This document shows positions 2,894-30,529 of a stretch of DNA of 35,106 nt, piece after piece. The stretch lies in the IMG/VR virus record IMGVR_UViG_3300027909_000015. One strand, given 5' to 3'. The notes beneath the pieces are model-generated. The model saw nothing but the letters and a program-made list of their open reading frames with translations, was not told the DNA's origin and did not search any database. The stretch is from a virus. Every line of letters starts with the position of its first letter. Position 1 is the first letter of the stretch. The position numbers and the translations under genes are program-made.

Positions 2894-3235
2894 CTAGATC
2901 ACCACGTACACGCGCATATGAGCGCGGCGCTCGTCGGTCATCCGAATCAGCGCCCGGCGCGGCGGCCTTCCCGCCGGGGCGTGGCCGCAAAGTTCCCAAC
3001 ACCTGGGACGCCCCGTATTTTCGCTAATGCCGAGCGCCTGACAGATTTCCCTGAGCGTCGCGCCCCGTGGCCCGCAGGTCACCAAATAGGCGTAGACCGC
3101 GCTCCGCAGTCGCATCGTATGCGGTGCGATATGCTGCGCCGCTGCCTCGGAGGTGTCGATAGGAACAGACGGAGCCTCTTGCTCGAACAATGTCGGGTCA
3201 CCCGGAGGCGGGGGCGCGTAATGGGTATGCCTCAT
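2894..3235 (-). CDS. Winged-helix/HTH-type DNA-binding protein (putative), 113 aa
   Basis: In the frame of track ORF 2894-3307, starting at ATG 3235. The segment LRSAVYAYLVTCGPRGATLREICQALGISENTGRPRCWEL reads like a MarR/wHTH recognition unit. Confidence 0.5.
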   Translation of the reverse strand: MRHTHYAPPPPGDPTLFEQEAPSVPIDTSEAAAQHIAPHTMRLRSAVYAYLVTCGPRGATLREICQALGISENTGRPRCWELCGHAPAGRPPRRALIRMTDERRAHMRVYVVI

Positions 3236-3369
3236 GGCTTCCCCCGCTTCAAGTACGCCACCCACGAGCCGCTGCGAATCGGGCACACCTCCGTATGCAC
3301 GATGCACCGGCCATACGTCCCGGTCTCCCCGCAGTACCGACAGGCTACCTCAGAAGGGGAGATCGTCAT
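3232..3369 (-). CDS. Zn-ribbon micro-protein, 45 aa
   Basis: Hand translation gives MTISPSEVACRYCGETGTYGRCIVHTEVCPIRSGSWVAYLKRGKP (CxxC...C..H...C). Its TGA forms an ATGA overlap with the start at 3235, and the ORF begins inside the acidic tail codons of the upstream gene. Confidence 0.45.
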   Translation of the reverse strand: MTISPSEVACRYCGETGTYGRCIVHTEVCPIRSGSWVAYLKRGKP

Positions 3370-3946
3370 CCTCGTCCTCGACGGGTTCCTCCGGCGTTGG
3401 CACGTCGCTCCCCGTCTTGGCTCGATGCGCCGTCAGCGCCGCCGCGTACTGCGTCTTGCGATCCGTCAGGAACTTGGGGCGCTCGTACTCGTTGAGTAGC
3501 GCCTCGGGCGGGTGCGGCATCTCCGTGGGTAGGGGACTAATGCTCACGATGTTCGCGAACTTCCGCCCCTTCCGCGTCAGGACGTGCTCAATGGACACGA
3601 GCGCGAACTTGCCGTGCAGCTTATCCACCGGCAACCCCGCTTCCGCCTGCTCCGGCGTGTACTTCTTGCCGCGCCAGCTCTCCAAGAACTTGCGCAAGTT
3701 CGCCTTCTCGTTGGCGGAAAGGGTCATCTCGGTCGTCACGAACGTCAGGCTCTTGTCCTCCTGCCGTTCGCCTGACGCAAAGACGAGCGCGACCTTCGCG
3801 ACTTCGCGTGGCTCCTGGCCGGGGAACTGCTCGACGTTCACCCCCAGGTTCACCACGTCCACGCACAACATGGGAAACTGTCCCTCGGCGTGGGGATTGA
3901 AATTGCCGCCTGAGTCCTTGGCGGTTACGGCGTCAGGTTTCTGCAT
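3350..3946 (-). CDS. SSB-like protein with an acidic C-terminal tip (possibly DUF669-type), 198 aa
   Basis: Track ORF whose C-terminus EDEDDDLPF mimics the canonical SSB tip (DDDIPF). The body does not read as a classical OB-fold SSB. Confidence 0.55.
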   Translation of the reverse strand: MQKPDAVTAKDSGGNFNPHAEGQFPMLCVDVVNLGVNVEQFPGQEPREVAKVALVFASGERQEDKSLTFVTTEMTLSANEKANLRKFLESWRGKKYTPEQAEAGLPVDKLHGKFALVSIEHVLTRKGRKFANIVSISPLPTEMPHPPEALLNEYERPKFLTDRKTQYAAALTAHRAKTGSDVPTPEEPVEDEDDDLPF

Positions 3947-8005: not shown

Positions 8006-8400
8006 CTCCCGGCGAACGGCTCACCCCCCAACAGATGGGCGAGGAGTGGAAGCTGCGGGCGCGGATTCTAGAGCAACTTGTCGCGTCGGACGCACATGCT
8101 GTGGAGGCCACAGTCGATCGGGTGCTGGCCGCGTGGCAAGCCGACCGAGAAGCGCTGGAACGGGAACTGACGGCGGGCGATGCGGTGGCGATAAAAACCG
8201 CCGAGCAAGTCTGGGAGCAAGCGCACGCACAGTACGGGCCGCTGCTGCTCCGTGCGACCGTCGCCTTGCGAGAATCCACGCGCCAGATGATTGCCGCCGC
8301 GAAATCCGACTACACGGGCGCCGACGATTATCACGAAGCGCTGCGCGACGCCGAAATTGTATTGGCCGAGCTAGACGCGGCCCAAGGAGAGACCAAGTGA
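8002..8400 (+). CDS. Hypothetical helical protein, 132 aa
   Basis: In the frame of track ORF 7978-8400. GTG 8002 forms a GTGA overlap and is preceded by GGGGGA. The protein ends ..AAQGETK. Confidence 0.6.
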   Translation: MTPGERLTPQQMGEEWKLRARILEQLVASDAHAVEATVDRVLAAWQADREALERELTAGDAVAIKTAEQVWEQAHAQYGPLLLRATVALRESTRQMIAAAKSDYTGADDYHEALRDAEIVLAELDAAQGETK

Positions 8401-8648
8401 ACCACGACTACACGCGCCTGAACGCGCACAGCGTCCAAGACCCGAACCAGCATACGAACTACGACATCGGCGCGACCAATGCGTCGCCGTTCTCATATGC
8501 GGGATGCCCGTACTGCTCAAGCCCCGGCCAGCAGATTTACCACGGCGGAACGTGCCCCCGTATCAAGGCCATCGAGTACCACCCGTGGGGCGGCATCAAG
8601 CGCATCGAGTTTCACGACGTGGGGGCGGCCCAAGGAGAGACCAAGTGA
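8397..8648 (+). CDS. Small Cys-containing protein, 83 aa
   Basis: GTG 8397 follows AAGGAGAG within the junction repeat. The sequence is MNHDYTRLNAHSVQDP...GCPYCSSPGQQIYHGGTCPRIK...AAQGETK. Confidence 0.6.
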   Translation: MNHDYTRLNAHSVQDPNQHTNYDIGATNASPFSYAGCPYCSSPGQQIYHGGTCPRIKAIEYHPWGGIKRIEFHDVGAAQGETK

Positions 8649-8947
8649 AACTGACGCTAGGCGGAGATTCACGGGCGCTCCCCAACGACGGCTCGTGGGG
8701 GCTCGGCATCTGGTACTTCGGCTGGGACGAGTCGGCTATCGACCTGAATCTCGGCTACCGCTGCGTGAGCCTGTCGTGGCGGCGTAATCGCCCCGCGCCC
8801 CGTTCCTGGGTCGCCCGCCTTCATCGGTGGCTCAATGACCCGACGTGGGGATTCGGAATCTTCCGCGACCCTGACCGCGTGTGGGCCGTGAGTTTCGGGC
8901 CGTGGATGCACGAGTTTGGGGCGGCCCAAGGAGAGGGGAACCAATGA
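8645..8947 (+). CDS. Trp-rich hypothetical protein, 100 aa
   Basis: GTG 8645 follows the second junction repeat. The sequence is MKLTLGGDSRALPNDGSWGLGIWYFGWDES...AAQGEGNQ. Confidence 0.6.
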   Translation: MKLTLGGDSRALPNDGSWGLGIWYFGWDESAIDLNLGYRCVSLSWRRNRPAPRSWVARLHRWLNDPTWGFGIFRDPDRVWAVSFGPWMHEFGAAQGEGNQ

Positions 8948-19522: not shown

Positions 19523-21120
19523 CGGCGGCTCCCCGGAATGATGCCCAAGCGCATCGTGCCCAGCCGGAAGTCCACCGTCCCCACAGGGCCCGCCAAAAGC
19601 GAGCCATCGGCGAGAAAGCTCCCATCCGCGAACACATCCAAGTCCCCGACTTGCTCGAACCGCACCCGCACCTGACGGCCTGACCACCGGATATCCGTTT
19701 CGGCGGTCAGCGCGTAGGGCCCGTAGGTTTGCTCCGCTTGGTGGGGCTGGAAGCTCGCAAAGAACGTCGCTTCCACCTGCCCAATCGGGAGATCGTCAGG
19801 AATCAACTTCTGGAACGTCAGCGTGCGATCCCCGCTCCCGAGTTCGATCGGCCCGGATTCGATGTAGGCGTTCTCCCCGCCCCGGTCTTGCCCGACTTCA
19901 TGGGCGTACAACTTCCCGGCGGAGTCCCAGCACATCGGCTGCGCGAAGACCCCAGCTCCCACCCCTGCGGCCCGTCCGAGGGTGCCGGTCATCCAGAACC
20001 CGCCCCGGTAGTTGTAGGCGACGTAGCGGTCATTCTCGGTCCCGCTCTGGGATGCCGAGGGGTAGAACCACCACACTTCTCCGAACGCGGCATTGGCAAA
20101 GGCGGCGATCTTCGCTTTCTGGCTCTTGTTGAAATCCCCGAAGACGTAATCCGCCACCTCGCACGGCAACTGCCTTACGGCGCCGTCGTAGCGGAAAAAC
20201 TGCCCGTCGCTCATCCAATAGGCGGCGCCTTCCACAATAGCCATTGCGTTCGGCCCCAAGAGTCCACACCCGTCGCCGCGTTGGTCGAAGCGGTAGATAA
20301 ACGGCCCTCCGATGTACACGGCGGCCCAGAGGTCGGCATCCGTCCAGAGCAGGGTCTCTCTCGCGGTGCGTTTCCCTGCGATCAACCGCCCATTCGTTTG
20401 CAAGACAAAATCCCCCGCCGAATTGGTGACCGCTGGCGCCCACGTCGTTTCTGTCTCTTGGGAAGCCCACGCCACTTGTCGGGGATTCGAGCTAGACCCG
20501 AGGGCCATGATGAACCGCTCCCCCGTCACCACAACGGCCCGGCATCCCGTGGGGGCGTTGGTGAGTTGGGTAAAGTCGTTGGCGATGTTCTTGTCCCAGA
20601 TCCAAATCTTCCCATCGGACGTGAGACACCCGAGGAGTTTTTCCCCAAAGTTGTCGAGCGACCACGTATCGGCATCCACCAACACCCCTGCTGCGGCGCC
20701 GACACCGCCCCAGCCGCCTTCCCCCCAGCCCCCGGAGCCCCAGCCCGTGGCCCCACCAGCGGAGATTGCGCCATCCGCGACCCCATCCACCAAGCCGCCG
20801 GGGGTGATGTCGGTCAGCGTCGATGGCGTGTAGGCGTAGGCTTTCGTCGTTCCGCTTCCCGTGGTCGCGACGGCGAGCCACGCCGAGGCGTCATTGCCGC
20901 GCCACGCATGGGTCCCACGGGGAAAGCCCACAGCGTCGATTTCGGCTCCCGTACTGGACTGCTGGAGCGCCCACCCGCCAATCGGCAAGAGGGGCGGATA
21001 CTGGGACCCATCGGGGAGCCAACGGATCAGATTCGCCCGCGCCCAGCGTCCTTTCGCCTGATAGAGCGTCCCATTGGCGTAGAGGCCCGCTGGGAGGTTT
21101 AAGGGGAGGAATTGTTCCAC
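19519..21120 (-). CDS. Large tail structural protein (nozzle / tail-tubular-B-like, tentative), 533 aa
   Basis: Track ORF with a GTG start in a TAGTG junction. It is Trp/Gly-rich and beta-propeller-like (..AYWMSDGQFFRYDG..EVWWFYPS..RYVAYNY..), and it sits between the fibre and the tailspike. Confidence 0.5.
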   Translation of the reverse strand: MEQFLPLNLPAGLYANGTLYQAKGRWARANLIRWLPDGSQYPPLLPIGGWALQQSSTGAEIDAVGFPRGTHAWRGNDASAWLAVATTGSGTTKAYAYTPSTLTDITPGGLVDGVADGAISAGGATGWGSGGWGEGGWGGVGAAAGVLVDADTWSLDNFGEKLLGCLTSDGKIWIWDKNIANDFTQLTNAPTGCRAVVVTGERFIMALGSSSNPRQVAWASQETETTWAPAVTNSAGDFVLQTNGRLIAGKRTARETLLWTDADLWAAVYIGGPFIYRFDQRGDGCGLLGPNAMAIVEGAAYWMSDGQFFRYDGAVRQLPCEVADYVFGDFNKSQKAKIAAFANAAFGEVWWFYPSASQSGTENDRYVAYNYRGGFWMTGTLGRAAGVGAGVFAQPMCWDSAGKLYAHEVGQDRGGENAYIESGPIELGSGDRTLTFQKLIPDDLPIGQVEATFFASFQPHQAEQTYGPYALTAETDIRWSGRQVRVRFEQVGDLDVFADGSFLADGSLLAGPVGTVDFRLGTMRLGIIPGSRR

Positions 21121-22067
21121 TAGCTCACGCTCGTGGTGTCAGGATCGAGGTACACAATCGTGGCCGTTTGCAGGGTAAACGTCCCCGCGCCCGTCTGGTC
21201 ACAGCCGAACGTCACGCCTTGCGCGCTGGCTTCATTCTCCGTGGGATTGGCCGACACGGGTTGCGACACGGCGGCATTGTTCACGAGCAGCATATCCACC
21301 CGCTGCGAACTCGTCGCCCGCCGAATCACCCACGCCTGCAAGAAGAACCGATTCCCCGCGAGGACCGTGAAGCTGGCGAGCGTCGTCGCCCCCCAGACCA
21401 AGGTGACCAAGGTATCCGTCGCGCCCACGAGGCCCGAGTAGGTGATATAGAGCCCCGCGCCGTTGCGATCCAAGCTTGCGGCGGGGAGCGTGTAACTAGC
21501 GACCGCCGTCAGCGTCGTGGAAGTCGTGGTCCGATTGGCGGCGGTGAAGATGGTGTGGGCCACCCGGTTCGTGCCGGTGCTGCCCCCGATCCGGGAGACG
21601 ACCTTCCCGTTTTGCTGGAGGTCGCCGCCGATCACAAACGCTTTCTGGTGGAGCACTGAGCCGTACCACGTGGTGCCGCCGTCGTAGGTGATGAGCCCGA
21701 TGATATCCACCCCGGAGGCGGTGAGTACCGGGTCCACGTCGCCGTTTTCCCAGACGACGGAGGCGGGCCACGTAATCGCGAAGGCGGCCCCGTTGGTGAT
21801 CTTGAGCCAGAGCCGCGTGAAGAACGTCGAGGTCGGGACGTTCGAGAACGCAATCGTTGTGACCTGCGTGTTCGTCCCCGTGAAGGCGCGGGCGAGCGAG
21901 CAGTCGATGGTCGTCGTCGCGCTCCACGAGAGGGCGGACTGAATCAGACGCGGCTTCGCCAACTCCGCGTCGATGTCATCCATGTTCGTGTTTCGCATCC
22001 CGCCCCAGTTCAGGTCACTGATGGCGGGCTTGTCGAACCCGTAGTTCGTGGTGAAGGTCGTGGCGAT
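21120..22067 (-). CDS. Tail-fibre-like protein, 315 aa if initiated at ATC 22067 (first canonical start is ATG 21998)
   Basis: Track ORF 21120-21998 has 23 more open sense codons upstream (IATTFTTNYGFDKPAISDLNWGG). These complete the fibre N-terminal motif (N.G..KP......W....N.N...iD). AGGAGGG lies 7 nt upstream of the in-frame ATC. Confidence 0.6.
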   Translation of the reverse strand: MATTFTTNYGFDKPAISDLNWGGMRNTNMDDIDAELAKPRLIQSALSWSATTTIDCSLARAFTGTNTQVTTIAFSNVPTSTFFTRLWLKITNGAAFAITWPASVVWENGDVDPVLTASGVDIIGLITYDGGTTWYGSVLHQKAFVIGGDLQQNGKVVSRIGGSTGTNRVAHTIFTAANRTTTSTTLTAVASYTLPAASLDRNGAGLYITYSGLVGATDTLVTLVWGATTLASFTVLAGNRFFLQAWVIRRATSSQRVDMLLVNNAAVSQPVSANPTENEASAQGVTFGCDQTGAGTFTLQTATIVYLDPDTTSVS

Positions 22068-22079
22068 GCGCCTACCCTC

Positions 22080-22799
22080 CTACCGCTGTAAGGCGTAACT
22101 GGAAATCATGCCCCATTTTTCACACAACGCTTGTTCCAAGGCCCAGAGCTGCGACGGCCCCAAGTCCTGCGTGAAGACCATCACTTCACACAGATGCCCA
22201 ATCCACGACGCGCCACCTACCGTCACGTCCGAATTGGTGTTGGTGCCAGCGATCCCCGCCGAGAAGGCGTGTATCCCGTCCACGCATTGCCGCGAGGTCG
22301 AGTTGAGCGGGGCCGCGACGAAGCTTTCCATGTGGTACGTGGTGACATCCCCGGCGACCGTCCCTCCGGCTTGCGCGGCGGCATCGTCAAACGGCGTGAA
22401 GGCGTTCGCCGTGGCCCAATCCAAACCCACCCCAATCCGGGCGGCGTTGAAGGTCGCCGCTTTGTGATACGCCGCGTCATCCGCCAAGGTGTTCTTGAGC
22501 AAGGCCACCACGGTGATCGGCCTCGCAATCGCTCCAGCGGTGGCGATCGTCATCGTATCCGTGGCGTCCACGAAGTTCACCGACGGGAAGCCGTTCGGGC
22601 CCCCCGTGGCCCGGAACAAGGGCTGGTTCGCCCCGGTGCCTTGCGCCAGATGCCGCGCGTTGCCCGAGAGATCGTTCCATTGCGCCACCGCCGCATCGGC
22701 GGCGGGTTGGGCGTTGCCGAACCCGTTGATGTAGTTCGCATCATACCACGCGAACAACCCCGGCAGGCAACGGACATCGATCCGATTGAGGTTCGGCAT
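22080..22799 (-). CDS. LamG/concanavalin-A-like jelly-roll domain protein (tail accessory or receptor-binding), 239 aa
   Basis: In the frame of track ORF 22080-22961, starting at ATG 22799. The sequence WNDLSGNARHLAQGTGANQPLF....NGFPSVNFVDATDTM is typical of LamG-type lectin domains. Confidence 0.55.
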   Translation of the reverse strand: MPNLNRIDVRCLPGLFAWYDANYINGFGNAQPAADAAVAQWNDLSGNARHLAQGTGANQPLFRATGGPNGFPSVNFVDATDTMTIATAGAIARPITVVALLKNTLADDAAYHKAATFNAARIGVGLDWATANAFTPFDDAAAQAGGTVAGDVTTYHMESFVAAPLNSTSRQCVDGIHAFSAGIAGTNTNSDVTVGGASWIGHLCEVMVFTQDLGPSQLWALEQALCEKWGMISSYALQR

Positions 22800-22800
22800 C

Positions 22801-23505
22801 TTAGAACACCCTCGATAGGGGTTGGAATCGTGGCCGCGTTCCGAAGGCGAGACGCTCGTCCTGTATCCGAATGTCTCGGAGTATCTTGGTAAACCGCGCT
22901 TCCCAAAGCGGCGTCCGCTCGTCATGCTGGAGATACGGCGCGGCTTCACAGAGCGCCCCATAGAGATACAGGTCGGGATGCTCCTGCCACACGGGGTTGG
23001 TCGCGTAGTTCGCCGCGCTAATCGGGAGGCCGAAGCTCGCGTTGAGCCCGATCATCGAGACGACGAGCGTGTAGAAGCTGTCCACCCCGGCGGAATCCTT
23101 GGGCGTGTTGGGGAGCGGATAGACTTTGAAACTCGTCCCGACTGCGGCGTAGGCTTCCGGGGCGCCAGGTCCCGGACTCGTGGTGTGCCACTCCATGAGT
23201 TGGTCCAGCGACACCTGTGGGAGTGGGGTCACGAGGCCAGAGGTATCGGCGGCGTCGGCGACTTTCCACCCGCAGGACTGAATCTCGACGGGGGTGAGGC
23301 CGACCGAGGCGATGGCGCTCGTTAACCCCGTGCCTGCCGCGACGGGCAGCGAAAACGCCCCGGTGCGGGTCAGGAAGGCGCGGAGTTCGCGCTGGAGCCG
23401 CGCTTCGGCGAGCCGAATGAAGTCGGGAATCCGCGCATCCAAGTCTGACCTTGCCAGCCACGCGGCGATGTTCGTCACGAGATCGTCGTAGGTGACGAAG
23501 GCCAT
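22801..23505 (-). CDS. Head-to-tail adaptor-like protein (tentative), 234 aa
   Basis: Track ORF. The N-terminus Y.DL...IA.WL.RSDL...IPDFI.LAE.RL.REL matches the adaptor/connector N-terminal pattern seen in many podoviruses. Confidence 0.45.
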   Translation of the reverse strand: MAFVTYDDLVTNIAAWLARSDLDARIPDFIRLAEARLQRELRAFLTRTGAFSLPVAAGTGLTSAIASVGLTPVEIQSCGWKVADAADTSGLVTPLPQVSLDQLMEWHTTSPGPGAPEAYAAVGTSFKVYPLPNTPKDSAGVDSFYTLVVSMIGLNASFGLPISAANYATNPVWQEHPDLYLYGALCEAAPYLQHDERTPLWEARFTKILRDIRIQDERLAFGTRPRFQPLSRVF

Positions 23506-24158
23506 TAGACCGCCGCCCGCGTCTGGACGGACTGCCGGGACGCCACGGCGTGTTGCGCCTCAAACTCCACCATCCCGATATGGGTCACCTGCTTCGAGAG
23601 GTCGTGATCCACGAGGATCGTCGCCCCGGCCTTCCGTAGCTGCTGACAGAAGTAGAGGTCTTCACCCACGTGAGCCCGGTCATCGGGGACATACCCCATC
23701 ATGAAGCGGGGAGCTGGTACAGTGCGGAGGAGATCGGCTTGGACGAGCATGACGCCCATCCCCGTCGCCGCGACAGGCTCAAGCCCGGTCGAGTCTTCCT
23801 CGGTATAGACCCGCGTCATCGGGTCGCCCAAGGACTTGACGCTCACGGGATGAAACGGGGGCCGTCTGGTCGTGTAGTTCGCGGCCACGACGGGTTGCTC
23901 GTGCGCGAGGAGCCGAACCAATGCGTCGGTCGGAAATCGCATGTCCGAGTCCAGATAGAGCAGGAAGTCGCATTGGGCCCGGAGGGCGGCGTCGGTCGTC
24001 TTTTCCCGTAACTCGGGCAGCCAGCAGCCGGTTGCCAGAAACCGCCGGAGGTCCAGGTCGGGACGCGCCGCAACAGTGTAAGCGAGGAGCCCGGCGAGGT
24101 CGTACGAGTGCCAGGCGAAGACCAAATCTGTCGAGACCAAGCAGACACCGACTCTCAT
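23505..24158 (-). CDS. GT-A fold glycosyltransferase (family-2-like), 217 aa
   Basis: Track ORF with DxD motif LLYLDSDMRF and a later GEDLYFCQQLRKAG motif. Its ATG forms an ATGA overlap with the Endo VII stop. Confidence 0.65.
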   Translation of the reverse strand: MRVGVCLVSTDLVFAWHSYDLAGLLAYTVAARPDLDLRRFLATGCWLPELREKTTDAALRAQCDFLLYLDSDMRFPTDALVRLLAHEQPVVAANYTTRRPPFHPVSVKSLGDPMTRVYTEEDSTGLEPVAATGMGVMLVQADLLRTVPAPRFMMGYVPDDRAHVGEDLYFCQQLRKAGATILVDHDLSKQVTHIGMVEFEAQHAVASRQSVQTRAAV

Positions 24159-24598
24159 CCTTTCTCCACGTAATCGGCGGCGCGACGTAGGGCGCGCACA
24201 TTGTCCCTGAAACTCCCCAGCCCTTGATTACAACCAGAGCAGAGGAGCCCGCGCACCTTCCCAGTTTTGTGGTCGTGATCGAGATGCGTTCCAGCGCCAA
24301 GCGCCTGCAAGACGTTGCCGCAAAGGGCGCAACATTCGCCCTGCTTCTCAAATAGGGCGTGGTACTGATCGAGCGTCACCCCATAAACCCGCGCCAGCCA
24401 TCCGAACTTGCGATTGGCCGTCACGGCTTCGGGATTGTCTTTCTCCCACTTGCGGCAGGCCGCGATATGGCGTTCGGGATACTTTTCCCGCCACGTTTTC
24501 TTGCGGGCAGAGGAACACGTCCGGCAGGTACGCTGCCCGCTGGTGGGATAGGTGTACCAATTGCTATGTCCGTTCTGGCATATCACTTGTTTAGTCAT
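24155..24598 (-). CDS. Recombination endonuclease VII family nuclease (free-standing homing-type), 147 aa
   Basis: In the frame of track ORF 24155-24634, starting at ATG 24598. It carries the signature HLDHDHKTGKVRGLLCSGCNQGLG. Confidence 0.8.
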   Translation of the reverse strand: MTKQVICQNGHSNWYTYPTSGQRTCRTCSSARKKTWREKYPERHIAACRKWEKDNPEAVTANRKFGWLARVYGVTLDQYHALFEKQGECCALCGNVLQALGAGTHLDHDHKTGKVRGLLCSGCNQGLGSFRDNVRALRRAADYVEKG

Positions 24599-24648
24599 CG
24601 CCACGCCCAGACATGATCGGTCGAGACAAGACACACCCCCACTCTCAC
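24595..24648 (-). pseudogene. 17-codon remnant or leader copy of the glycosyltransferase N-terminus
   Basis: Its GTG forms a GTGA overlap with the upstream stop, and its TGA forms an ATGA overlap with the Endo VII ATG. By hand count it matches the GT start at 35/51 nt and 13/17 aa. Confidence 0.55.
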
Positions 24649-24974
24649 AGTTTGCCCGCCTTGATGCGGAACAGTTTGTTGTCTGGGTCGTTCAAGAACC
24701 GATGGAGCGCTTTCTGGCGGTCCAATGCCCCGAGCCCCTTCGCGCGCCATTCCTTCAAGAGCCCGAAGTAAATCGGCAGCGGGATACTCGCCACCAGATT
24801 GTCGTTGTCCTTCCACTTCCCGTCCTGCAACGGCGCGAGGTCCTTGTTCTGCTCGATGATCGGCTCCACGTCCACCGCGCTGTCCACGGCGAACCGCCCA
24901 TCGGGCAGCGTGTGAAAGGTCCGCACCCGCCCCGTCAGGGGGTCAGTATCGAGGATCATCGTGGTGTCGCTCAC
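24645..24974 (-). CDS. Hypothetical head-module protein, 109 aa (ATG alternative about 15 nt downstream)
   Basis: C-terminal part of track ORF 24645-25130. GTG 24974 forms a GTGA overlap. Confidence 0.6.
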   Translation of the reverse strand: MSDTTMILDTDPLTGRVRTFHTLPDGRFAVDSAVDVEPIIEQNKDLAPLQDGKWKDNDNLVASIPLPIYFGLLKEWRAKGLGALDRQKALHRFLNDPDNKLFRIKAGKL

Positions 24975-25084
24975 GAATAGCCCTCTTTCTTCCGCTGACG
25001 AAAGCCTTTCGCGGCGACCCGGAGCTGCTGCTTCGGCCTCGGCACTTGGACCTTCACCTTGGGGGCTGGGGGACGTTTCGGCAT
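24971..25084 (-). CDS. Very basic 37-aa micro-protein
   Basis: MPKRPPAPKVKVQVPRPKQQLRVAAKGFRQRKKEGYS, from track ORF 24971-25156. The ATG forms a TGATG junction with the upstream stop. Confidence 0.4.
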   Translation of the reverse strand: MPKRPPAPKVKVQVPRPKQQLRVAAKGFRQRKKEGYS

Positions 25085-25401
25085 CAGGGCCGTTGGACGT
25101 TGAAGACGTACGTCCCCGCCGGGGGCACATTCGCGACGGCGGTGAAGTTGCCCCACTGAATCGCGACGGTGGTCGCGTTCACCACTCTGGCCCCGACGAT
25201 GCCGACATTGGTCGCGAAGGCCGCTGGAGGATTCACGGTCACAAAATCCGTCACCGCCAAGACGAGCGGGGTCCCGGCGCCCGTGGCGTAGCGCTGGAGG
25301 CCCGCCGTCACGTCGTAGGATTCCTCCGACACCCCGACCGCTGCCGCTCGTGCCGATGGCGTGAGGGCGACCCCGAACACGATGGCACCCGCGAAGGCCA
25401 T
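25084..25401 (-). CDS. Hypothetical head-module protein, 105 aa, beta-rich (possible decoration protein)
   Basis: In the frame of track ORF 25084-25611. ATG 25401 lies in a TAATG junction. Confidence 0.55.
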   Translation of the reverse strand: MAFAGAIVFGVALTPSARAAAVGVSEESYDVTAGLQRYATGAGTPLVLAVTDFVTVNPPAAFATNVGIVGARVVNATTVAIQWGNFTAVANVPPAGTYVFNVQRP

Positions 25402-25667
25402 TAGCCCCCCGCTTTCTTGCCCTTCGCGGACACGTTCTTGGGACAGGAGTCCCGGTGCCCTTCGATCAACTCCCGCCCGATCTGGGTCCTGACATGCACT
25501 CCGGTGACCGGGTTGTAGCCCTTGTACGCCCCGCAATACGGGCAGGGGCCGTTGCCTTGCGCTTCTTGTTCTTTCTGCCACGCCGTGTCGGCTTCGACGT
25601 GTTCCTCCCACTCGATGCGCCGCGCTTCTTCCGGCGTGACGACGACATTCGCTTTGGTCTTCGGCAT
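25401..25667 (-). CDS. Small CPYCG protein, 88 aa
   Basis: Track ORF and the first gene after the capsid gene. Confidence 0.6.
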   Translation of the reverse strand: MPKTKANVVVTPEEARRIEWEEHVEADTAWQKEQEAQGNGPCPYCGAYKGYNPVTGVHVRTQIGRELIEGHRDSCPKNVSAKGKKAGG

Positions 25668-25686
25668 GAACTCCCCCAGGAGGGAG

Positions 25687-25703
25687 GGGGGCTTTGGGCC
25701 CCC
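25687..25703 (-). terminator. GC hairpin (GGGGGC-CCAAA-GCCCCC on the transcript) just downstream of the capsid gene
   Basis: A 6-bp G/C stem lies 32 nt after the MCP stop. There is no U tract. The following CCCTCC could pair with the GGGGGAG ribosome-binding site of the next gene. Confidence 0.3.
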
Positions 25704-25734
25704 GCTCCGCTCCGCTAGAAGGTGTCCCTACTCA

Positions 25735-26709
25735 TCAAGAGGTGAGCAGGTCCGCGAGCAGGCCTTGACTGAAGTCTGTCTTTACCTTCAACCCCCACTC
25801 CGCGAGCAGCATCCGCTTCTCGGCATCGCCGGTCTTGGCCAGCTCCTCCACCCGGAACGGACGGAGGTACACGATGTCGATGTACTCGAAGTCCAGCACC
25901 CACGCATCCCGGTCCCGCTGGAAGCGGTTCGGGACGATCGAATAGGTGCCGAACTCCCCGACGTACACGTCCGCCGAGCCGATGATGGCCGCCGGACGCG
26001 CCGCTTCCTGGAAATACGTCTTGGTCGCGATCCCGGCGAAGCCCGAGAACACCGACTTGTTGAACGGGCCCACCATGATCGTATCAGGCGACCCGCCGTT
26101 CACCCACACGCCCGAGAGCACCACCTTCAAGAGCGCTTCGGTCGCGGCCCGCTGCGTCCCATCGTTGCGGGGGTCGGTGAACAGCAGGGCGTCGGTCGGA
26201 TTCGTCCCCGTGGCGCCCATCGAGACGTTGGTGCCGTCGATGGAGCCGATGGTGGCCCCCATCGTGCCCGTCTTCGGGGCGGTCGTCGAGTTCCCGGCCA
26301 CGGCGCCCACGTTGTCGAGCGCGTTCTTTTCGATGTCGCGTTTGATTTCCGCCGACCGCTTGGTGATCTGGTAGGCGAGTTCCGTCTTCCGGCCTGCGGT
26401 CGAGACGGCGTTGGTCGTCCCGGCGACGATGATGGCTTTCCGGCTGATTTGCGTCCGGTTCCCCATGCGAACGGTCGCGGTGACTGCGTCGAAGGCCGCG
26501 ATGTCATCGCCTTGGAGCTGGGCGTTCGTGGAAACCGCCGCCGCCAACGCGTCGCGCTGCCATTCGTACAGCGTGTTGTCCACCGAATCCCGCCCCGCGT
26601 TCGAGATGAACGGGGTATCCTCAGGACTCAGGTTGTAGATGATGTTCGAGAGTTCTTCTCGGACACCTTTGATGTCGAACACGAGGGTCGTGTTCGCGAT
26701 AATCGTCAT
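25735..26709 (-). CDS. Major capsid protein (HK97-fold family common in podoviruses), 324 aa
   Basis: Track ORF. The N-terminal pattern G.REELSN.IYN.SPEDTPF ... YEWQRD.L and K.ELAYQ..K...E.KRD.E match this MCP family. It follows the scaffold gene and has an AGGAG ribosome-binding site. Confidence 0.85.
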   Translation of the reverse strand: MTIIANTTLVFDIKGVREELSNIIYNLSPEDTPFISNAGRDSVDNTLYEWQRDALAAAVSTNAQLQGDDIAAFDAVTATVRMGNRTQISRKAIIVAGTTNAVSTAGRKTELAYQITKRSAEIKRDIEKNALDNVGAVAGNSTTAPKTGTMGATIGSIDGTNVSMGATGTNPTDALLFTDPRNDGTQRAATEALLKVVLSGVWVNGGSPDTIMVGPFNKSVFSGFAGIATKTYFQEAARPAAIIGSADVYVGEFGTYSIVPNRFQRDRDAWVLDFEYIDIVYLRPFRVEELAKTGDAEKRMLLAEWGLKVKTDFSQGLLADLLTS

Positions 26710-26718
26710 GTTCTGCTC

Positions 26719-27681
26719 CTATTCCAGCAGCGCCTCGATGGCCTTGGAGGCATCCCGCAGCCGGTGCGTCTTGGCGGCCTGCTGAATCAGTTCCTGTTGG
26801 CGTGCATTGGCCGGAGGAGGCGGGGGAGTGGCCCCGGGCTTCGCCGTCCGAATGGCGGGGCTCTTGGCTTTGGCTTGGGCCGAGGGCTCCCGCTGCAATT
26901 GCTTGTACTTCAGGGCATCCCGCAGGAGGAGGATCGTCCGTGAATCCACGACTTGATCCAACTCCTTATCGGTAAACCCGTAGCTCTTGGCATGGGCCCG
27001 CAGTTGCGCGGATTCAGCTTTGGCTTTGTCGGGATCAGCCCAATCGGGCAGGGCGGTTTTGAGCTTGTCCTGTTCCGCGCGGACATAGGCATGGTAGCGT
27101 TTCATTTCGTCGGCCTGCGCTTCCTGCTCGACGCGGCGCTGCTCCGCTTTCAGCCTCTCGGTATGCGCCTTGGTCCGCTCCCACTCGGCCTTTTGCCGCA
27201 AGAACTCGGCGGGGTCCACCTTCGCGTGAAGGGCATCCCAGTCGGGTTCCCCCTGCAACTGCTCGATGGCTGAGACCAGTTGCTTCAAGCCATCCGCGTA
27301 TTGCGTGCGTTCCGCCTGCACGGCCTGGGACTCGGCCTCAAACGTCCGGCGTTCCTCTGCCAAGGCCATCGTCTTGCGCTTGTAGTCTTCGTGCTTCTGG
27401 TATCCTGCCCGGAGTTCATCGAGGTCTACCTGGTGGGTTTCCCCATCCACGGTGACTTCGTAGGTCTGGGCAGAGTCCTCAGACGGCGGGGGCTCGGTGG
27501 CAGCGGGCTCGGAGGGAGTGGGCGCTGGGGGAGTCTCAGCCGGGGCGCCGGGCGTCGGCGCGGGCTCGGTCGCGGGGGCATCTGGGCGAGACTCGTCCGT
27601 CTCGGTGATGAGCCCGGCGATCTTTCCAACAGCTTCCCCAGCGGTGAGGGAACTCGTCGCGCTGGGTTCTGGCTTCGGCAT
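26719..27681 (-). CDS. Scaffolding protein, 320 aa
   Basis: In the frame of track ORF 26719-27864, starting at ATG 27681. It has a Pro/Ala/Thr/Glu-rich N-terminus followed by long charged coiled-coil-like helices, and lies immediately upstream of the MCP. Confidence 0.65.
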   Translation of the reverse strand: MPKPEPSATSSLTAGEAVGKIAGLITETDESRPDAPATEPAPTPGAPAETPPAPTPSEPAATEPPPSEDSAQTYEVTVDGETHQVDLDELRAGYQKHEDYKRKTMALAEERRTFEAESQAVQAERTQYADGLKQLVSAIEQLQGEPDWDALHAKVDPAEFLRQKAEWERTKAHTERLKAEQRRVEQEAQADEMKRYHAYVRAEQDKLKTALPDWADPDKAKAESAQLRAHAKSYGFTDKELDQVVDSRTILLLRDALKYKQLQREPSAQAKAKSPAIRTAKPGATPPPPPANARQQELIQQAAKTHRLRDASKAIEALLE

Positions 27682-27685
27682 GATA

Positions 27686-27931
27686 CTACTCCTGTTCCGA
27701 AAGTGCAAGTTGACGATCCCGGATAGCCCGGAACTCGCGTTGAACGTCCTCGAACGATTGCCATTTTTGCCACAGCGCCTCGCGATCAGCGGAGGTACTG
27801 TTCCTCGCCTTGAACGCCTTGAGCGCCCGTTCCTCCATGCGCTCTTGGACTTCCGCCCACGCATCAGAGGCCAAGAACGCTTCGATGGCTTTGGCGCGGT
27901 GGAGAATCTGCTCGGGGCTCAGTTCAGCCAT
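27686..27931 (-). CDS. Hypothetical helical protein, 81 aa
   Basis: Track ORF. Confidence 0.6.
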   Translation of the reverse strand: MAELSPEQILHRAKAIEAFLASDAWAEVQERMEERALKAFKARNSTSADREALWQKWQSFEDVQREFRAIRDRQLALSEQE

Positions 27932-28473
27932 GTCTCCGCCATCGTGTAGGCGAGTACCAAGTCTTCATCCTCCAAGGCCATCCGCATGAACGTGCGGGTA
28001 TCTTCTTCGGGGTCCGTGGGCGCATCGACGTAGCCCCGGAAGGCGATCCGGGGGCCTCGGACAGTGATGCCGAACGCCCCCTCGTGCAGGTCGTTGACCG
28101 TGAGGTCCAAGGGGACGTGCTGGCGTCTCGGGGGATAGCGATGCACCACCGCCCGCTTGCGGACGCCATGCGGTCTTCCCCCGACTGCCGGAGGCGCGCT
28201 GCTGGGCACCGTGCCGGTAAAGGCGATACTCGGGGTCGGGACGGTAATCGCAAACGTGCTGGTAATCGGGGGCGCGGTGACGGTCCCCGTGAAGGCGATG
28301 GCCGGTTGCCCGACGGTAATCGCGAACGTGCCGGTGACCGGCGGGGCGGTATTGGTCCCCGTGAAGGCGATTTGCGGCTGCGCGACCGTGATCCCAAACG
28401 TCCCCGTGACGTTCGTGGTCGCGAGGACTTGCGCGGCGGACCCGTTATACCAGAACGCGCCGGGGCCCGTCAT
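27919..28473 (-). CDS. Tandem-repeat virion-module protein, 184 aa
   Basis: Track ORF with three 24-aa repeats (TGTFGITVAQPQIAFTGTNTAPPV and variants) plus a degenerate fourth (GAFGITVRGPRIAFRGYVDAP). Confidence 0.65.
   Translation of the reverse strand: MTGPGAFWYNGSAAQVLATTNVTGTFGITVAQPQIAFTGTNTAPPVTGTFAITVGQPAIAFTGTVTAPPITSTFAITVPTPSIAFTGTVPSSAPPAVGGRPHGVRKRAVVHRYPPRRQHVPLDLTVNDLHEGAFGITVRGPRIAFRGYVDAPTDPEEDTRTFMRMALEDEDLVLAYTMAETWLN
28189..28410. repeat. Three tandem 72-bp coding repeats (degenerate fourth copy at 28018-28083)
   Basis: The DNA shows recurring ccccgtgaaggcgat...gacggtaatcgcgaacgtgccggt units. The protein period is 24 aa. Confidence 0.8.
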
Positions 28474-28833
28474 TTAGCTAATCTGCCGAATGGAGGCATC
28501 GAAGGCCCGATCCGTCCCCGCGATCTTCTTGATGGTCATGTCCCACCCGTTCATTAAAATCAGCATCGGCGTGCAGAAAATCTCCGACTGCACCCCTTTC
28601 AGCGTGGCGAGAAAGACGAGCTTCGAGGTCCCGCCCGATTCCACCTTCTCGTAAATCCGAATCGCGTATTCCTCGGTCTTCGTCATGTTCGTCTGGTCAT
28701 CGATCCAGAGCTGGAACACGCCGTCCGTCGTCTGACTCTGCGCCACGTCGTAGGTCGCGTTCCGGGGGATCGAGAGTTCCGTCGTCCCCGAGGGCGTGAC
28801 GTTGTTCAGCGTGAAGGCTTCGGTAATCGCCAT
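28474..28833 (-). CDS. Hypothetical virion-module protein, 119 aa
   Basis: C-terminal part of track ORF 28474-29088. ATG 28833 lies in a TAATG junction. Confidence 0.6.
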   Translation of the reverse strand: MAITEAFTLNNVTPSGTTELSIPRNATYDVAQSQTTDGVFQLWIDDQTNMTKTEEYAIRIYEKVESGGTSKLVFLATLKGVQSEIFCTPMLILMNGWDMTIKKIAGTDRAFDASIRQIS

Positions 28834-29024
28834 TAGGGCTGGCGCTCCAAGAGAAACGACCCCGTCGCGATCCAACGGTGGCCGGTCACGCAAGCAATGG
28901 CCCCGCTCATTTCCATGTGGATGTGTCCCCCCACCGCGCCGTTGCGCGCTCCTTCTTTGGGCTCCACCGTCGCGACGGAGAGCCCGAGGCCACAGATCGG
29001 ACAGGTCAGGATGACGGTGCTCAC
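28833..29024 (-). CDS. Small CPICG protein, 63 aa
   Basis: Track ORF with an ATGA overlap to the upstream gene. Confidence 0.5.
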   Translation of the reverse strand: MSTVILTCPICGLGLSVATVEPKEGARNGAVGGHIHMEMSGAIACVTGHRWIATGSFLLERQP

Positions 29025-29272
29025 AAAATCGACAAGTCGATGTGCAGCACTTGATCGACCTCGATGTTTTCCGCCGCCGCCGCGTCAATCACGGCATCCC
29101 GCACCCGCGTGCGCCAATTCGGGAGCACCGGGATAAACGTGGGCGACGACGCCTCGAACGTCAGGAAGATGTGGCCCGAGGACCCGGTGGTCACCGCCGC
29201 CGTGCCGGTGATTTTGTAGAGATTGTCCTCAATGTCGAGCGCGTAGCACTCCGTCACCATCGCTTTGGCCAT
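29021..29272 (-). CDS. Hypothetical protein, 83 aa
   Basis: Track ORF. Confidence 0.6.
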   Translation of the reverse strand: MAKAMVTECYALDIEDNLYKITGTAAVTTGSSGHIFLTFEASSPTFIPVLPNWRTRVRDAVIDAAAAENIEVDQVLHIDLSIL

Positions 29273-29281
29273 ACGTCCTCC

Positions 29282-30115
29282 TTAGCTGACGGCGTGGATG
29301 ACGCCGTTATAGTTGCCGACATCGTTGACTCCACTGTTCGAGCACCGCATCACCAGGCGCGTCCCGGATGGCACATCCGCAAACGCGGGAAACGTGTTCC
29401 ACGGCCCGTCCATGCGTTCATCCGCCGTCATGTGGTACACGAACGACTGCCCAATTTCGAGTTCGGTCGCCGCGCCGGTCCCGATATCCACGAAATACGC
29501 GAGCGTATTGAGCGTCGTGTCGGTGCCCGCTTGGAAGCTCGGATAGAACGCGAAATGGTTTTCGCTCGTCGAGGCGGTGATTTGCGTCCATGCCCCCTCC
29601 GCCGCCGAGGCCCCCGGCACGATGGTCGTCCCAAACGGCACGGTGCCCATGCCGTAGGTCGTGACCTTCCGGCCGACGCGAAACGGGGGCAGCGCATCCC
29701 CGCCGTAGACGTAAATGACGACGTTGTACGCCGTCGAGAGGCGTTTGCCCGCACCGCGCGCCCAGATTTGCGTGCCGTTCGGGATGTAGAGCGGGAAATG
29801 CCATTGCTTCGGCCCGATGGCGGTGCTCGTGAACCAGCCCGCAAACCCCATCAAGAGATCGGGGATGATGATTTCTTGCGTGGCCGCCCCCGTCGCGATA
29901 TCCATCGCCCCTTGGGAATCGGCGGCGGCGCTCCCGTAGTTCAGGGCATAGATCGATATCCAGTAGACATCGAACGTCGTGGTGAGGAGCGAGACGTAAC
30001 TGCCTTTGGTCGCCTCGGCAGCCCCGGTCGTGACGGCGGTCCCCGGCGTCGCGGCGCCGACGGTCCCGGCATTGTGCTGGACCCGGAGTGGGCCTTTCTG
30101 GGGAACCCAAAGGAT
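29282..30115 (-). CDS. Two-domain (internally duplicated) beta-rich virion-module protein, 277 aa if initiated at ATC 30115 (first canonical start is ATG 29905)
   Basis: Track ORF 29282-29905 has 70 more open sense codons upstream. They are needed to complete repeat 1 (..GSYVSLLTTTFDVYWISIYALNYG....MDIATGAATQEIII..), which parallels repeat 2 (..GAWTQITASTSENHFAFYPSFQAG....VDIGTGAATELEIG..). AGGAGG lies 5 nt upstream of the in-frame ATC. Confidence 0.6.
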   Translation of the reverse strand: MLWVPQKGPLRVQHNAGTVGAATPGTAVTTGAAEATKGSYVSLLTTTFDVYWISIYALNYGSAAADSQGAMDIATGAATQEIIIPDLLMGFAGWFTSTAIGPKQWHFPLYIPNGTQIWARGAGKRLSTAYNVVIYVYGGDALPPFRVGRKVTTYGMGTVPFGTTIVPGASAAEGAWTQITASTSENHFAFYPSFQAGTDTTLNTLAYFVDIGTGAATELEIGQSFVYHMTADERMDGPWNTFPAFADVPSGTRLVMRCSNSGVNDVGNYNGVIHAVS

Positions 30116-30124
30116 GGAAGCCTC

Positions 30125-30529
30125 CTAGGCTGGGAAGGTGATGGTCCCCGCCGAGCACGCGACGTTGGCCCCGGCGGTGATGGACGTGGAGTTCAAAATC
30201 AAATCGGCGGCGGAGGTGCCCACAGACATATCGACCTTCCGCACGCCCGCCGAGGTCGTGAGCGTCGCCCACGTCGCGGTCCCCGTGGCGTCCGCCGAGG
30301 CATCCGCCGTGATGGCGTTCGCGGTCAGAACCCCGGCGGCGGCGGCCCCGAAGGCCGTGGCCGACAAGGGCAGTTCCGCGAGCTTCACCTGTGCCCCGAG
30401 GGCGGTGGCGACGTTCGTGGGCTGCGTCCCGTCGTAGATACGCAGGAAGCCCGAGGCGCCAATCGACGTGTCGATGGCGTCCAGAAAGGTGTTGCGGTCC
30501 GCTTCGAGGAAATGCGGGTTAGTCGCCAT
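30125..30529 (-). CDS. Hypothetical virion-module protein, 134 aa
   Basis: Track ORF. The FLRIYDG.QP ... TGTATWA ... pattern recalls a conserved small protein of unknown function found near portal genes in other phages (recalled from memory, not verified). Confidence 0.6.
   Translation of the reverse strand: MATNPHFLEADRNTFLDAIDTSIGASGFLRIYDGTQPTNVATALGAQVKLAELPLSATAFGAAAAGVLTANAITADASADATGTATWATLTTSAGVRKVDMSVGTSAADLILNSTSITAGANVACSAGTITFPA

Follow-up and report, generated by a model that had tools for sequence, protein, structure and literature searches.

The Escherichia coli genes infC and pcnB have AUU start codons, and translation table 11 includes AUC, AUU and AUA among its starts. Programmed read-through of stop codons offers another departure from standard gene boundaries, as in the A1 protein of Q-beta, and phage genomes in which TAG is recoded also exist. 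In well-annotated bacterial genomes, ATG, GTG and TTG make up 99.95% of the starts, and all other codons about 0.05%. Reporter measurements in E. coli put initiation at AUC, AUU, AUA and CUG at about 1-2% of the AUG level, and mass spectrometry of AUC-started GFP identified an N-terminal Met (bioRxiv 10.1101/063800). Translational coupling through overlap or proximity of stop and start codons is exemplified by the re-initiation system of M13 genes V-VII (PMC2268962).

The genome analysed here, that of an uncultured 35-kb soil phage of an SU10-like clade (the window, that is, the whole stretch of 35,106 nucleotides), resembles the near-cognate bacterial starts in that two virion genes carry, exactly where their orthologues have ATG, an Ile-type codon that differs from AUG in the third base, is presumably decoded by fMet-tRNA and would initiate weakly. 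Unlike infC, however, these are phage virion genes rather than a host regulator, with no evident IF3 feedback logic, and unlike the known near-cognate cases, two such starts lie in one genome, recur across two gene families and are at every junction paired with a Shine-Dalgarno (SD) sequence that the canonical orthologues mostly lack. The likeness to stop-start coupling (M13 V-VII; ATGA and TGATG junctions) lies in a start placed 9-12 nt past the stop, where relatives have TGATG or TAA-ATG, and the difference in the combination of an AUC start with a full SD. Similarly, an in-frame TAG between two coding regions recalls Q-beta A1 and the TAG-recoded phages; here, in contrast, the arrangement is not conserved, the window has neither a suppressor tRNA nor an in-gene TAG, and TAG is a normal terminator. 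On the evidence presented here, we consider it probable, at roughly 85%, that both genes are translated from near-cognate AUC codons read by initiator fMet-tRNA.

The two ATC junctions

The features concerned are as follows.

30125..30529, minus strand: upstream gene of site 1, ORF for a 134-aa virion structural protein (phrog_3758 match, E = 5e-30), ending at TAG 30127-30125
30127-30125, minus strand: stop TAG of site 1
30126-30121, minus strand: AGGAGG SD of site 1, overlapping the TAG
30120-30116, minus strand: spacer CTTCC, 5 nt, from SD to ATC
30115-30113, minus strand: ATC, probable start codon of the 277-aa gene, aligned with orthologue starts
29282..30115, minus strand: full-length 277-aa tandem jelly-roll gene, stop TAA 29284-29282
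26709..26721, minus strand: scaffold-to-capsid junction TAG-GAG-CAG-AAC-ATG (TAG 26721, ATG 26709, in frame)
22080..22799, minus strand: upstream gene of site 2, 239-aa virion protein (phrog_10356 match), ending at TAG 22082-22080
22082-22080, minus strand: stop TAG of site 2
22081-22076, minus strand: AGGAGG SD of site 2, overlapping the TAG
22075-22068, minus strand: spacer GTAGGCGC, 8 nt, from SD to ATC
22067-22065, minus strand: ATC, probable start codon of the tail-fibre gene, aligned with orthologue ATG
21120..22067, minus strand: full-length tail-fibre gene, 315 aa (families phrog_9017 and phrog_7760), stop TAG 21122-21120

As reported in the preliminary description, the minus strand reads TAG-GAG-GCT-TCC-ATC at 30127-30113 (site 1) and TAG-GAG-GGT-AGG-CGC-ATC at 22082-22065 (site 2), with a perfect AGGAGG overlapping each TAG, followed after 5 and 8 nt by ATC. 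Both reading frames stay open from the TAG into the downstream gene, and the first ATG, GTG or TTG lies 73 codons past the TAG and 70 past the ATC in the 277-aa gene, and 27 and 23 codons past them, respectively, in the fibre gene. The expected truncation by standard gene callers is found in public gene calls, which begin the 277-aa gene at ATG 29905 (207 aa) and the fibre at ATG 21998 or 21983 (287 or 292 aa); the upstream gene of site 1 is annotated there as 134 aa as well. ENA, JGI and Logan assemblies of at least six samples show both junctions unchanged (99.99-100% identity), and their recurrence in at least six independent assemblies rules out sequencing error. Every other minus-strand gene examined, from 32855 down to 12402, has a canonical start, and no promoter or terminator was found at the junctions.

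The assertion that the codons ahead of the first canonical start are coding is borne out. Homologues of the 277-aa protein align from residue 1-4 on, with L2, W3, P5, K7 and G8 invariant, and MLWVPQKG or a near variant opens about 100 of the 120 listed database homologues. Between the window and L096, a relative with ATT at this position, dN/dS is 0.11 for codons 2-70 and 0.09 for the remainder of the gene; judged by these ratios, purifying selection acts on the 70 codons that precede the first ATG as it does on those that follow. In the AF2 model (pLDDT 91.2), strands 11-14, 26-30, 41-45 and 50-58 precede Met71, such that the first 70 residues are predicted to be integral to the first jelly-roll domain, of which they form four strands and half. 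They also belong to the internal duplication that they had been said to complete, which is real (residues 9-135 versus 144-275, 26% identity, E = 3e-4). The fibre N-terminus, described as conserved, indeed matches that of homologues beginning MATTFTTNYGFDKPAISDLNWGG. The LamG label proposed for the 239-aa gene upstream of the fibre found no match at E <= 0.01 in a Pfam search.

The third junction likewise has the in-frame arrangement described for it, but the scaffold-capsid fusion suggested on this basis finds no support: this is an ordinary SD-plus-ATG start of an SU10-type major capsid gene and lies outside the anomaly. When an SD overlaps the stop and the spacing is 5-9 nt, about 2 of 5 arrangements are in frame by chance.

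The start position in relatives

About 65 distinct relatives, with about 55 distinct junctions, have their start codon at the position of each ATC; in the 277-aa family the ATC aligns with the start of about 40 distinct orthologues. In both families this codon is mostly ATG and sometimes GTG or TTG, which settles the question, raised at the outset, of whether homologues start with ATG at the equivalent position. The 277-aa family has ATG in 28, GTG in 7 and TTG in 3 distinct junctions, with proteins starting M-LWVPQKG; the fibre family has ATG in 15 (L019, L020, L091, L092, L114 and others, with proteins starting MADTTTT.. and MATTFTTNYGFDKPA..) and GTG and TTG in 1 each. In most relatives, the upstream stop and the start overlap in another frame (TGATG) or the upstream gene is a different one (endonuclease VII); in the window and the relatives with its junction cassettes (L096, L104, L018, L090 and L124), the upstream TAG shares the frame of the downstream gene, and a read-through product could in principle form there.

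Twelve more junctions, on other contigs, have ATC, ATT or, once, ACG at the start position. ATT or ATC occupies the site 1 position in L096, L098, L099 and L100, and ATC recurs at the site 2 position in L106, L108, L124 and L130. Non-canonical codons thus account for 6 of about 44 distinct junctions in the 277-aa family and 7 of 24 in the fibre family; these 13 junctions are phylogenetically non-independent and represent roughly five or more separate contexts. The stop before the codon is an out-of-frame TAA in L098 (ATT) and L100 (ATC), where the open frame holds no canonical start between the in-frame stop and the codon; the ATC of L106 also follows an out-of-frame TAA and that of L108 an out-of-frame TAG, whereas L099 (ATT) and L130 (ATC) have an in-frame TAA. 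Read-through of TAG cannot explain these four junctions after an out-of-frame stop and two after TAA. In L104/L105, the start position behind a TAGGAGGCTGCC cassette, as at site 1, is occupied by ACG, which is not an AUN codon; ACG is a much weaker initiator, and these two fit a fusion with the upstream gene slightly better.

The non-canonical codons are tightly associated with ribosome-binding sites. A GGAG or GAGG motif precedes the codon by 4-10 nt at all 13 non-canonical junctions, compared with 8 of the 55 that have a canonical start (Fisher p = 6.5e-9); the canonical orthologues mainly have stop-start overlaps without an SD, for example TGATG or TAA-ATG. Moreover, the 12-nt cassette TAGGAGGCTTCC of site 1 is unchanged between the window and L096 despite a synonymous divergence (pS) of about 0.63, and differs by one change in L104; the 20-nt stretch TAGGAGGGTAGGCGCATCGC of site 2 recurs without change in other metagenomes, in L018/L088/L111 and in L090. 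The SD-to-ATC spacers are conserved more strictly than the SD alone would require, a point that speaks against the AUC reading. Synonymous sites are saturated, yet the codons that would form a linker keep their wobble positions, a sign of constraint at the nucleotide rather than the amino-acid level.

Probable AUC initiation and its alternatives

Under initiation at AUC, the predicted proteins would open Met-Leu-Trp-Val-Pro... (277-aa protein) and Met-Ala-Thr-Thr-Phe... (fibre), with fMet as the likely first residue, and the six-base AGGAGG, 5 and 8 nt before the AUC, would place the 30S subunit on this codon. The stop-start gaps of 9 nt (site 1) and 12 nt (site 2) fall within the proximity expected for termination-reinitiation. 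At so short a distance from the stop, a ribosome that has completed the upstream gene may bind again at the SD, so that translational coupling could contribute; re-initiation by the terminating ribosome is plausible. The ATC persists in relatives whose stops are out of frame or abut it, which indicates that the exact junction geometry is not critical. The combination of a weak start codon with a strong SD would be expected to yield a modest translation rate, possibly suited to low-copy virion proteins.

The preliminary description had offered two readings, initiation at ATC and amber read-through. The comparative evidence strongly supports the former, since ATC stands at the start codon of orthologues, recurs behind out-of-frame or TAA stops and has an SD at every such junction; the latter is unneeded and its arrangement is not conserved. 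If the in-frame TAG were read as sense, products of 134+4+277 aa and a fusion of the upstream protein with the fibre would be the sole route of expression of the N-terminal segments, a reading that would account for the frame shared across the TAG at both sites and in the cassette-sharing relatives, and for the ACG in L104. We nevertheless judge it very improbable: orthologues of both genes begin at the aligned codon as separate genes, most of them behind an out-of-frame TGATG overlap or endonuclease VII; the stops preceding ATC or ATT in L098, L100, L106 and L108 (out of frame) and in L099 and L130 (TAA) do not permit it; read-through has no need of the SD that accompanies all 13 non-canonical junctions; and the conserved linker wobble positions are not what selection on a linker peptide would leave. 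Furthermore, TAG terminates 8 of 32 minus-strand genes, including scaffold and fibre, and is therefore an ordinary stop in this genome; the window contains no tRNA gene and hence encodes no suppressor tRNA; and no RNA structure beyond that of shuffled controls was detected at the junctions (folding z-scores -1.05, 0.19 and -0.16). Genome-wide reassignment of TAG was also considered and rejected, given these 8 of 32 terminations and gene lengths equal to those of homologues.

Low-level read-through could instead accompany AUC initiation, the latter giving the main product and the former a minor fusion with a role of its own, as in some phage capsid and tail extensions. Retention of the in-frame arrangement in all cassette-bearing genomes and the excess conservation of the spacers are compatible with such a dual output, but a shared cassette automatically keeps the frame, other ATC/ATT lineages are out of frame, neither a suppressor tRNA in the window nor a stimulatory element was found, and two in-frame junctions would arise by chance with a probability of about 0.16, given an SD-start spacing of 5-9 nt; we regard this combination as quite unlikely. 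That ATC arose by mutation of the start codon or by misassembly, leaving the genes dead or shortened to the first ATG, is hardly credible. ATC is one base away from ATG and gene callers do yield products of 207 and 287/292 aa; however, the sequence is identical across at least 6 independent assemblies, the cassettes are kept across lineages at 68-79% protein identity, dN/dS is about 0.1 ahead of the first ATG, and shortening would cost four jelly-roll strands and the conserved fibre N-terminus. Compared with the nearest relative of the ATG type, moreover, the junction shows no simple point change; 10-12 nt have been replaced, and the SD arises from this replacement.

A more far-reaching proposal, which we hold to be unlikely, is that selection has made the ATC/ATT starts a regulatory device in this uncultured clade of SU10-like soil phages, where they would be more than tolerated weak starts. 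By analogy with infC, a maximal SD combined with ATC or ATT might make fibre and jelly-roll synthesis dependent on start-codon proofreading by IF3, and hence on the state of the infected cell; in another version, these starts would point to relaxed start-codon discrimination in the host lineage. A minor fusion protein from TAG read-through could exist in addition.

Annotation and evolution of virion gene starts

Initiation at AUC is already documented, and the present case is a fresh example of near-cognate starts that does not change the understanding of translation. Its practical consequence is that public gene calls shorten two virion proteins in this phage and its relatives, one losing half a domain and the other the conserved fibre N-terminus, presumably the tail anchor; gene callers that use homology to place starts and accept ATC and ATT would remedy this. 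Ile-codon starts are far more frequent in these families than the approximately 0.05% of all non-canonical codons in annotated bacterial genomes, and their recurrence together with compensating ribosome-binding sites is modestly interesting. The two families form a natural series, from SD-less ATG, GTG or TTG coupled to the upstream stop to ATC or ATT with a strong SD, and thereby offer a clean setting in which to compare how the strengths of start codon and ribosome-binding site co-evolve.

Two virion genes and their upstream junctions

Reading of the minus strand confirms both of the TAG...ATC junctions claimed in the preliminary description, one preceding the gene for a 277-aa protein and the other preceding the tail-fibre gene; further in-frame stop-start junctions lie in the same structural operon.

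29282-30115, minus strand: 277-aa gene, between the portal and scaffold genes
30127-30113, minus strand: site 1; TAG 30127-30125, AGGAGG 30126-30121, spacer CTTCC, ATC 30115-30113
21120-22067, minus strand: tail-fibre gene, 315 aa
22082-22065, minus strand: site 2; TAG 22082-22080, AGGAGG 22081-22076, spacer GTAGGCGC, ATC 22067-22065
29272-29284, minus strand: in-frame junction TAA-GGA-GGA-CGT-ATG
28471-28476, minus strand: in-frame junction, TAA directly followed by ATG

As described earlier, the frame is open from the TAG at both sites, the first ATG, GTG or TTG lies 73 (site 1) and 27 (site 2) codons past the TAG, i.e., 70 and 23 past the ATC, and gene callers truncate both products, the public calls beginning at internal ATGs to give 207 aa and 287 or 292 aa. 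No promoter or terminator signals were found at the junctions, which sit within operons.

Assemblies of no fewer than six samples (ENA, JGI and Logan) contain nearly the same genome (99.99-100% identity), as a contig of ~35.1 kb in three of them. Sites 1 and 2 are identical in every one of them and, therefore, sequencing or assembly error is excluded; the window is a circulating genotype. Its G+C content is 63.6%, and it encodes SU10-type capsid, portal and adaptor proteins. Among 50,697 deposited phage records, there is no close relative: megablast gave no match to the window and tblastn none for the 277-aa protein, and the fibre N-terminus has only distant matches. A search of 185,579 representative genomes gave a single match, a 69-kb contig binned into a Steroidobacteraceae MAG (L079, DATJIP010000119.1), possibly a lead to the host or else a mis-binned phage contig.

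The codons upstream of the first ATG are indeed coding. Alignments of the 277-aa protein with its relatives begin at residue 1-4, L2, W3, P5, K7 and G8 being invariant, and comparison of the window with contig L096, both of which lack a canonical start, yields dN 0.146 and dS 1.344 for codons 2-70 and dN 0.137 and dS 1.535 for the remainder of the gene. The proposed internal duplication is detectable as well (residues 9-135 vs 144-275, 26% identity, E = 3e-4), and the AlphaFold model (pLDDT 91.2, pTM 0.90) places four strands of the first of two domains before Met71. The 277-aa protein is predicted with high confidence to consist of two tandem jelly-roll-like beta domains derived by internal duplication. 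No Pfam or PHROG family matched it, and Foldseek searches of the model against PDB and BFVD retrieved only generic tandem beta-sandwich proteins at TM <= 0.4 (tandem CBM22, PNGase F and the STIV double-jelly-roll capsid protein). In one viral contig (L012, the same as L061), two tandem paralogous copies of this gene are arranged head-to-tail (2157-2999 and 3001-3846). Likewise, the conserved fibre N-terminus stands: fibre homologues begin MATTFTTNYGFDKPAISDLNWGG..., and their match to the window starts with the first residue past the ATC.

Two further features of the window were noted. Public gene calls leave an apparent gap of 124 nt at 25084-24959, which is filled by an uncalled, very basic 37-aa ORF (MPKRPPAPKVKVQVPRPKQQLRVAAKGFRQRKKEGYS, 24971-25084, minus strand), the ATG of which overlaps the upstream TGA (TGATG). 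On the plus strand, three copies of a 25-nt element, GCGGCCCAAGGAGAGACCAAGTGAA, lie at 8377-8401, 8625-8649 and 8921-8945 (two copies identical, the third with 72% identity; spacing 248 and 296 nt). A small ORF draws both its Shine-Dalgarno (SD) sequence and its start codon from each copy, suggesting either that small genes were duplicated or that a cassette for translation initiation is repeated.

Start codons in the two gene families

The check for ATG at the equivalent position in homologues was mostly positive in both families. The codon aligned with the ATC is ATG in 28, GTG in 7 and TTG in 3 distinct junctions of the 277-aa family, in which MLWVPQKG or a near variant begins ~100 of the 120 listed database homologues, and ATG in 15, GTG in 1 and TTG in 1 of the fibre junctions, where a frequent form is ...CAG-AAA-TAA-ATG-GCC-GAC, without an SD. 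In most relatives of the 277-aa gene the start is overlapped by an upstream stop that lies in another frame (GCC-TGA-TG); the ancestral state is therefore not a fusion of the two genes.

Candidate non-canonical starts were flagged by slightly shortened N-termini of database proteins, and the DNA of the flagged entries was then inspected.

Table. Junctions of relatives with a non-canonical codon at the start position (L-numbers, contigs)
L096, 277-aa family (79% identical): same TAGGAGGCTTCC cassette, then ATT
L098, 277-aa family: ATT after out-of-frame TAA; no ATG, GTG or TTG between it and the preceding in-frame stop
L100, 277-aa family: ATC after out-of-frame TAA; no ATG, GTG or TTG between it and the preceding in-frame stop
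L099, 277-aa family: ATT after in-frame TAA
L104/L105, 277-aa family: ACG behind TAGGAGGCTGCC
L018/L088/L111 and L090, fibre family: 20-nt stretch TAGGAGGGTAGGCGCATCGC identical to that of the window
L124, fibre family: TAG-GAG-GCG-GGT-ATC
L130, fibre family: GGAGGCC-TAA-ATC
L106, fibre family: GGAGAAC-TAA-A-ATC, out of frame; endonuclease VII gene upstream
L108, fibre family: GGAGGCT-TAG-CC-ATC, out of frame

Some shortened database calls proved to be ordinary: L102 and L107 start with TTG and ATG, respectively. At the aligned codon, L021/L022 have TTC and L037 has CTG, but these variants are extended at the N-terminus and the codon is internal. Such extensions, of 30-50 residues, are present in some 277-aa orthologues (L002 2929-3009; L021 ~135-260; proteins P0006, P0010, P0013, P0070 and P0091) and carry a repeated W-x-P...GPLW-x-P motif resembling the normal N-terminus LWVPQKGPL, the usual start position being an internal TTC, CTG or ATG. 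In L104 (1486-1500) and L105 (Logan SRR14194075 and SRR14194057), the ACG (Thr) lies behind a near-identical TAG-GAG-GCT-GCC, and the first canonical codon after it, a GTG, comes three codons on, use of which would remove the invariant Trp3; this could be an ACG start, a case of read-through or a shortened protein.

Junction type does not track overall similarity: a single metagenome holds one strain 90% identical to the window in protein sequence with a TGATG/ATG junction (L001, IMG/VR 3300017605_000259) and another 79% identical with TAGGAGGCTTCC/ATT (L096, JGI 3300017605 Ga0187303_1071501), which suggests that junction types may have been repeatedly switched or recombined. A recent point mutation of ATG was rejected, given that ATG-type relatives differ by replacement of 10-12 nt and the junction is conserved across diverged lineages.

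Initiation at ATC and read-through of TAG

The preliminary description offered two readings, initiation at ATC and read-through of the in-frame TAG. In-frame stop-start junctions are common in the structural operon and not peculiar to the ATC sites; given an SD overlapping the stop and a spacing of 5-9 nt, two out of the five possible spacings keep the frame, and the probability of two (~0.16) or three (~0.06) such junctions by chance is not significant. The scaffold-capsid read-through fusion, suggested from the third TAGGAG junction, was not borne out, that junction being an ordinary SD-ATG start. Genomes with an in-frame TAG might yield a minor read-through product. TAG is the stop codon of 8 of the 32 minus-strand genes, scaffold and fibre among them, the window has no tRNA genes, and every other minus-strand gene checked, from 32855 down to 12402, starts with ATG, GTG or TTG. 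Given this normal use of TAG and the absence of tRNA genes, both reassignment of TAG and a suppressor tRNA encoded by the phage were rejected. The junctions fold no better than shuffled sequences, so that no read-through-stimulating or other RNA structure was detected there. Because conservation, a suppressor tRNA and a stimulatory structure were each tested for and not found, sites 1 and 2 are not members of the read-through and TAG-recoding classes.

The ATC and ATT junctions of the table indicate that an Ile codon is kept at the start position whatever the identity or frame of the upstream stop, including stops out of frame; judging from these comparisons, such retention is what initiation, rather than read-through, would predict. 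Moreover, an SD (GGAG or GAGG 4-10 nt upstream of the start) is present in 13 of 13 non-canonical junctions and in 8 of the 55 with a canonical start (Fisher p = 6.5e-9, the junctions not being phylogenetically independent); the 13 represent roughly five or more contexts, but the contrast is complete. The cassettes are conserved in nucleotide sequence as well: twelve neutral bases would remain unchanged at a synonymous divergence of ~0.63 with a probability of ~8e-6. The conserved bases include the wobble bases of what would be linker codons, which points to an RNA-level constraint on these cassettes from the ribosome-binding site. Conservation of the spacers is stricter than an SD alone would require. 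Of the two original readings, initiation at AUC, directed by the SD and using initiator tRNA, is the better supported by the sequence comparisons.

ATG, GTG and TTG account for 99.95% of starts in well-annotated bacterial genomes. Known near-cognate start codons include the AUU of infC and pcnB, and translation table 11 includes alternative starts. Sites 1 and 2 belong with these, every testable defining feature of such starts having been found, and an N-terminal Met is predicted. We propose that the SD would direct the initiator tRNA to AUC, possibly with the help of ribosomes terminating 9-12 nt upstream, and that the combination of a maximal SD with a weak codon would result in modest output, fitting low-copy virion proteins. 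In E. coli, initiation at AUC, AUU, AUA and CUG reaches ~1-2% of that at AUG, and AUC-started GFP carries an N-terminal Met (bioRxiv 10.1101/063800); re-initiation there depends on initiator tRNA and IF2, and excess IF3 lowers it (PMC2268962). A study of re-initiation at non-canonical codons in eukaryotic oocytes (PMC4648390) was set aside. What appears to be new is the presence of two putative ATC starts within one small phage genome and, furthermore, the recurrence of apparent Ile-codon starts, strictly paired with strong SDs, across two virion gene families.
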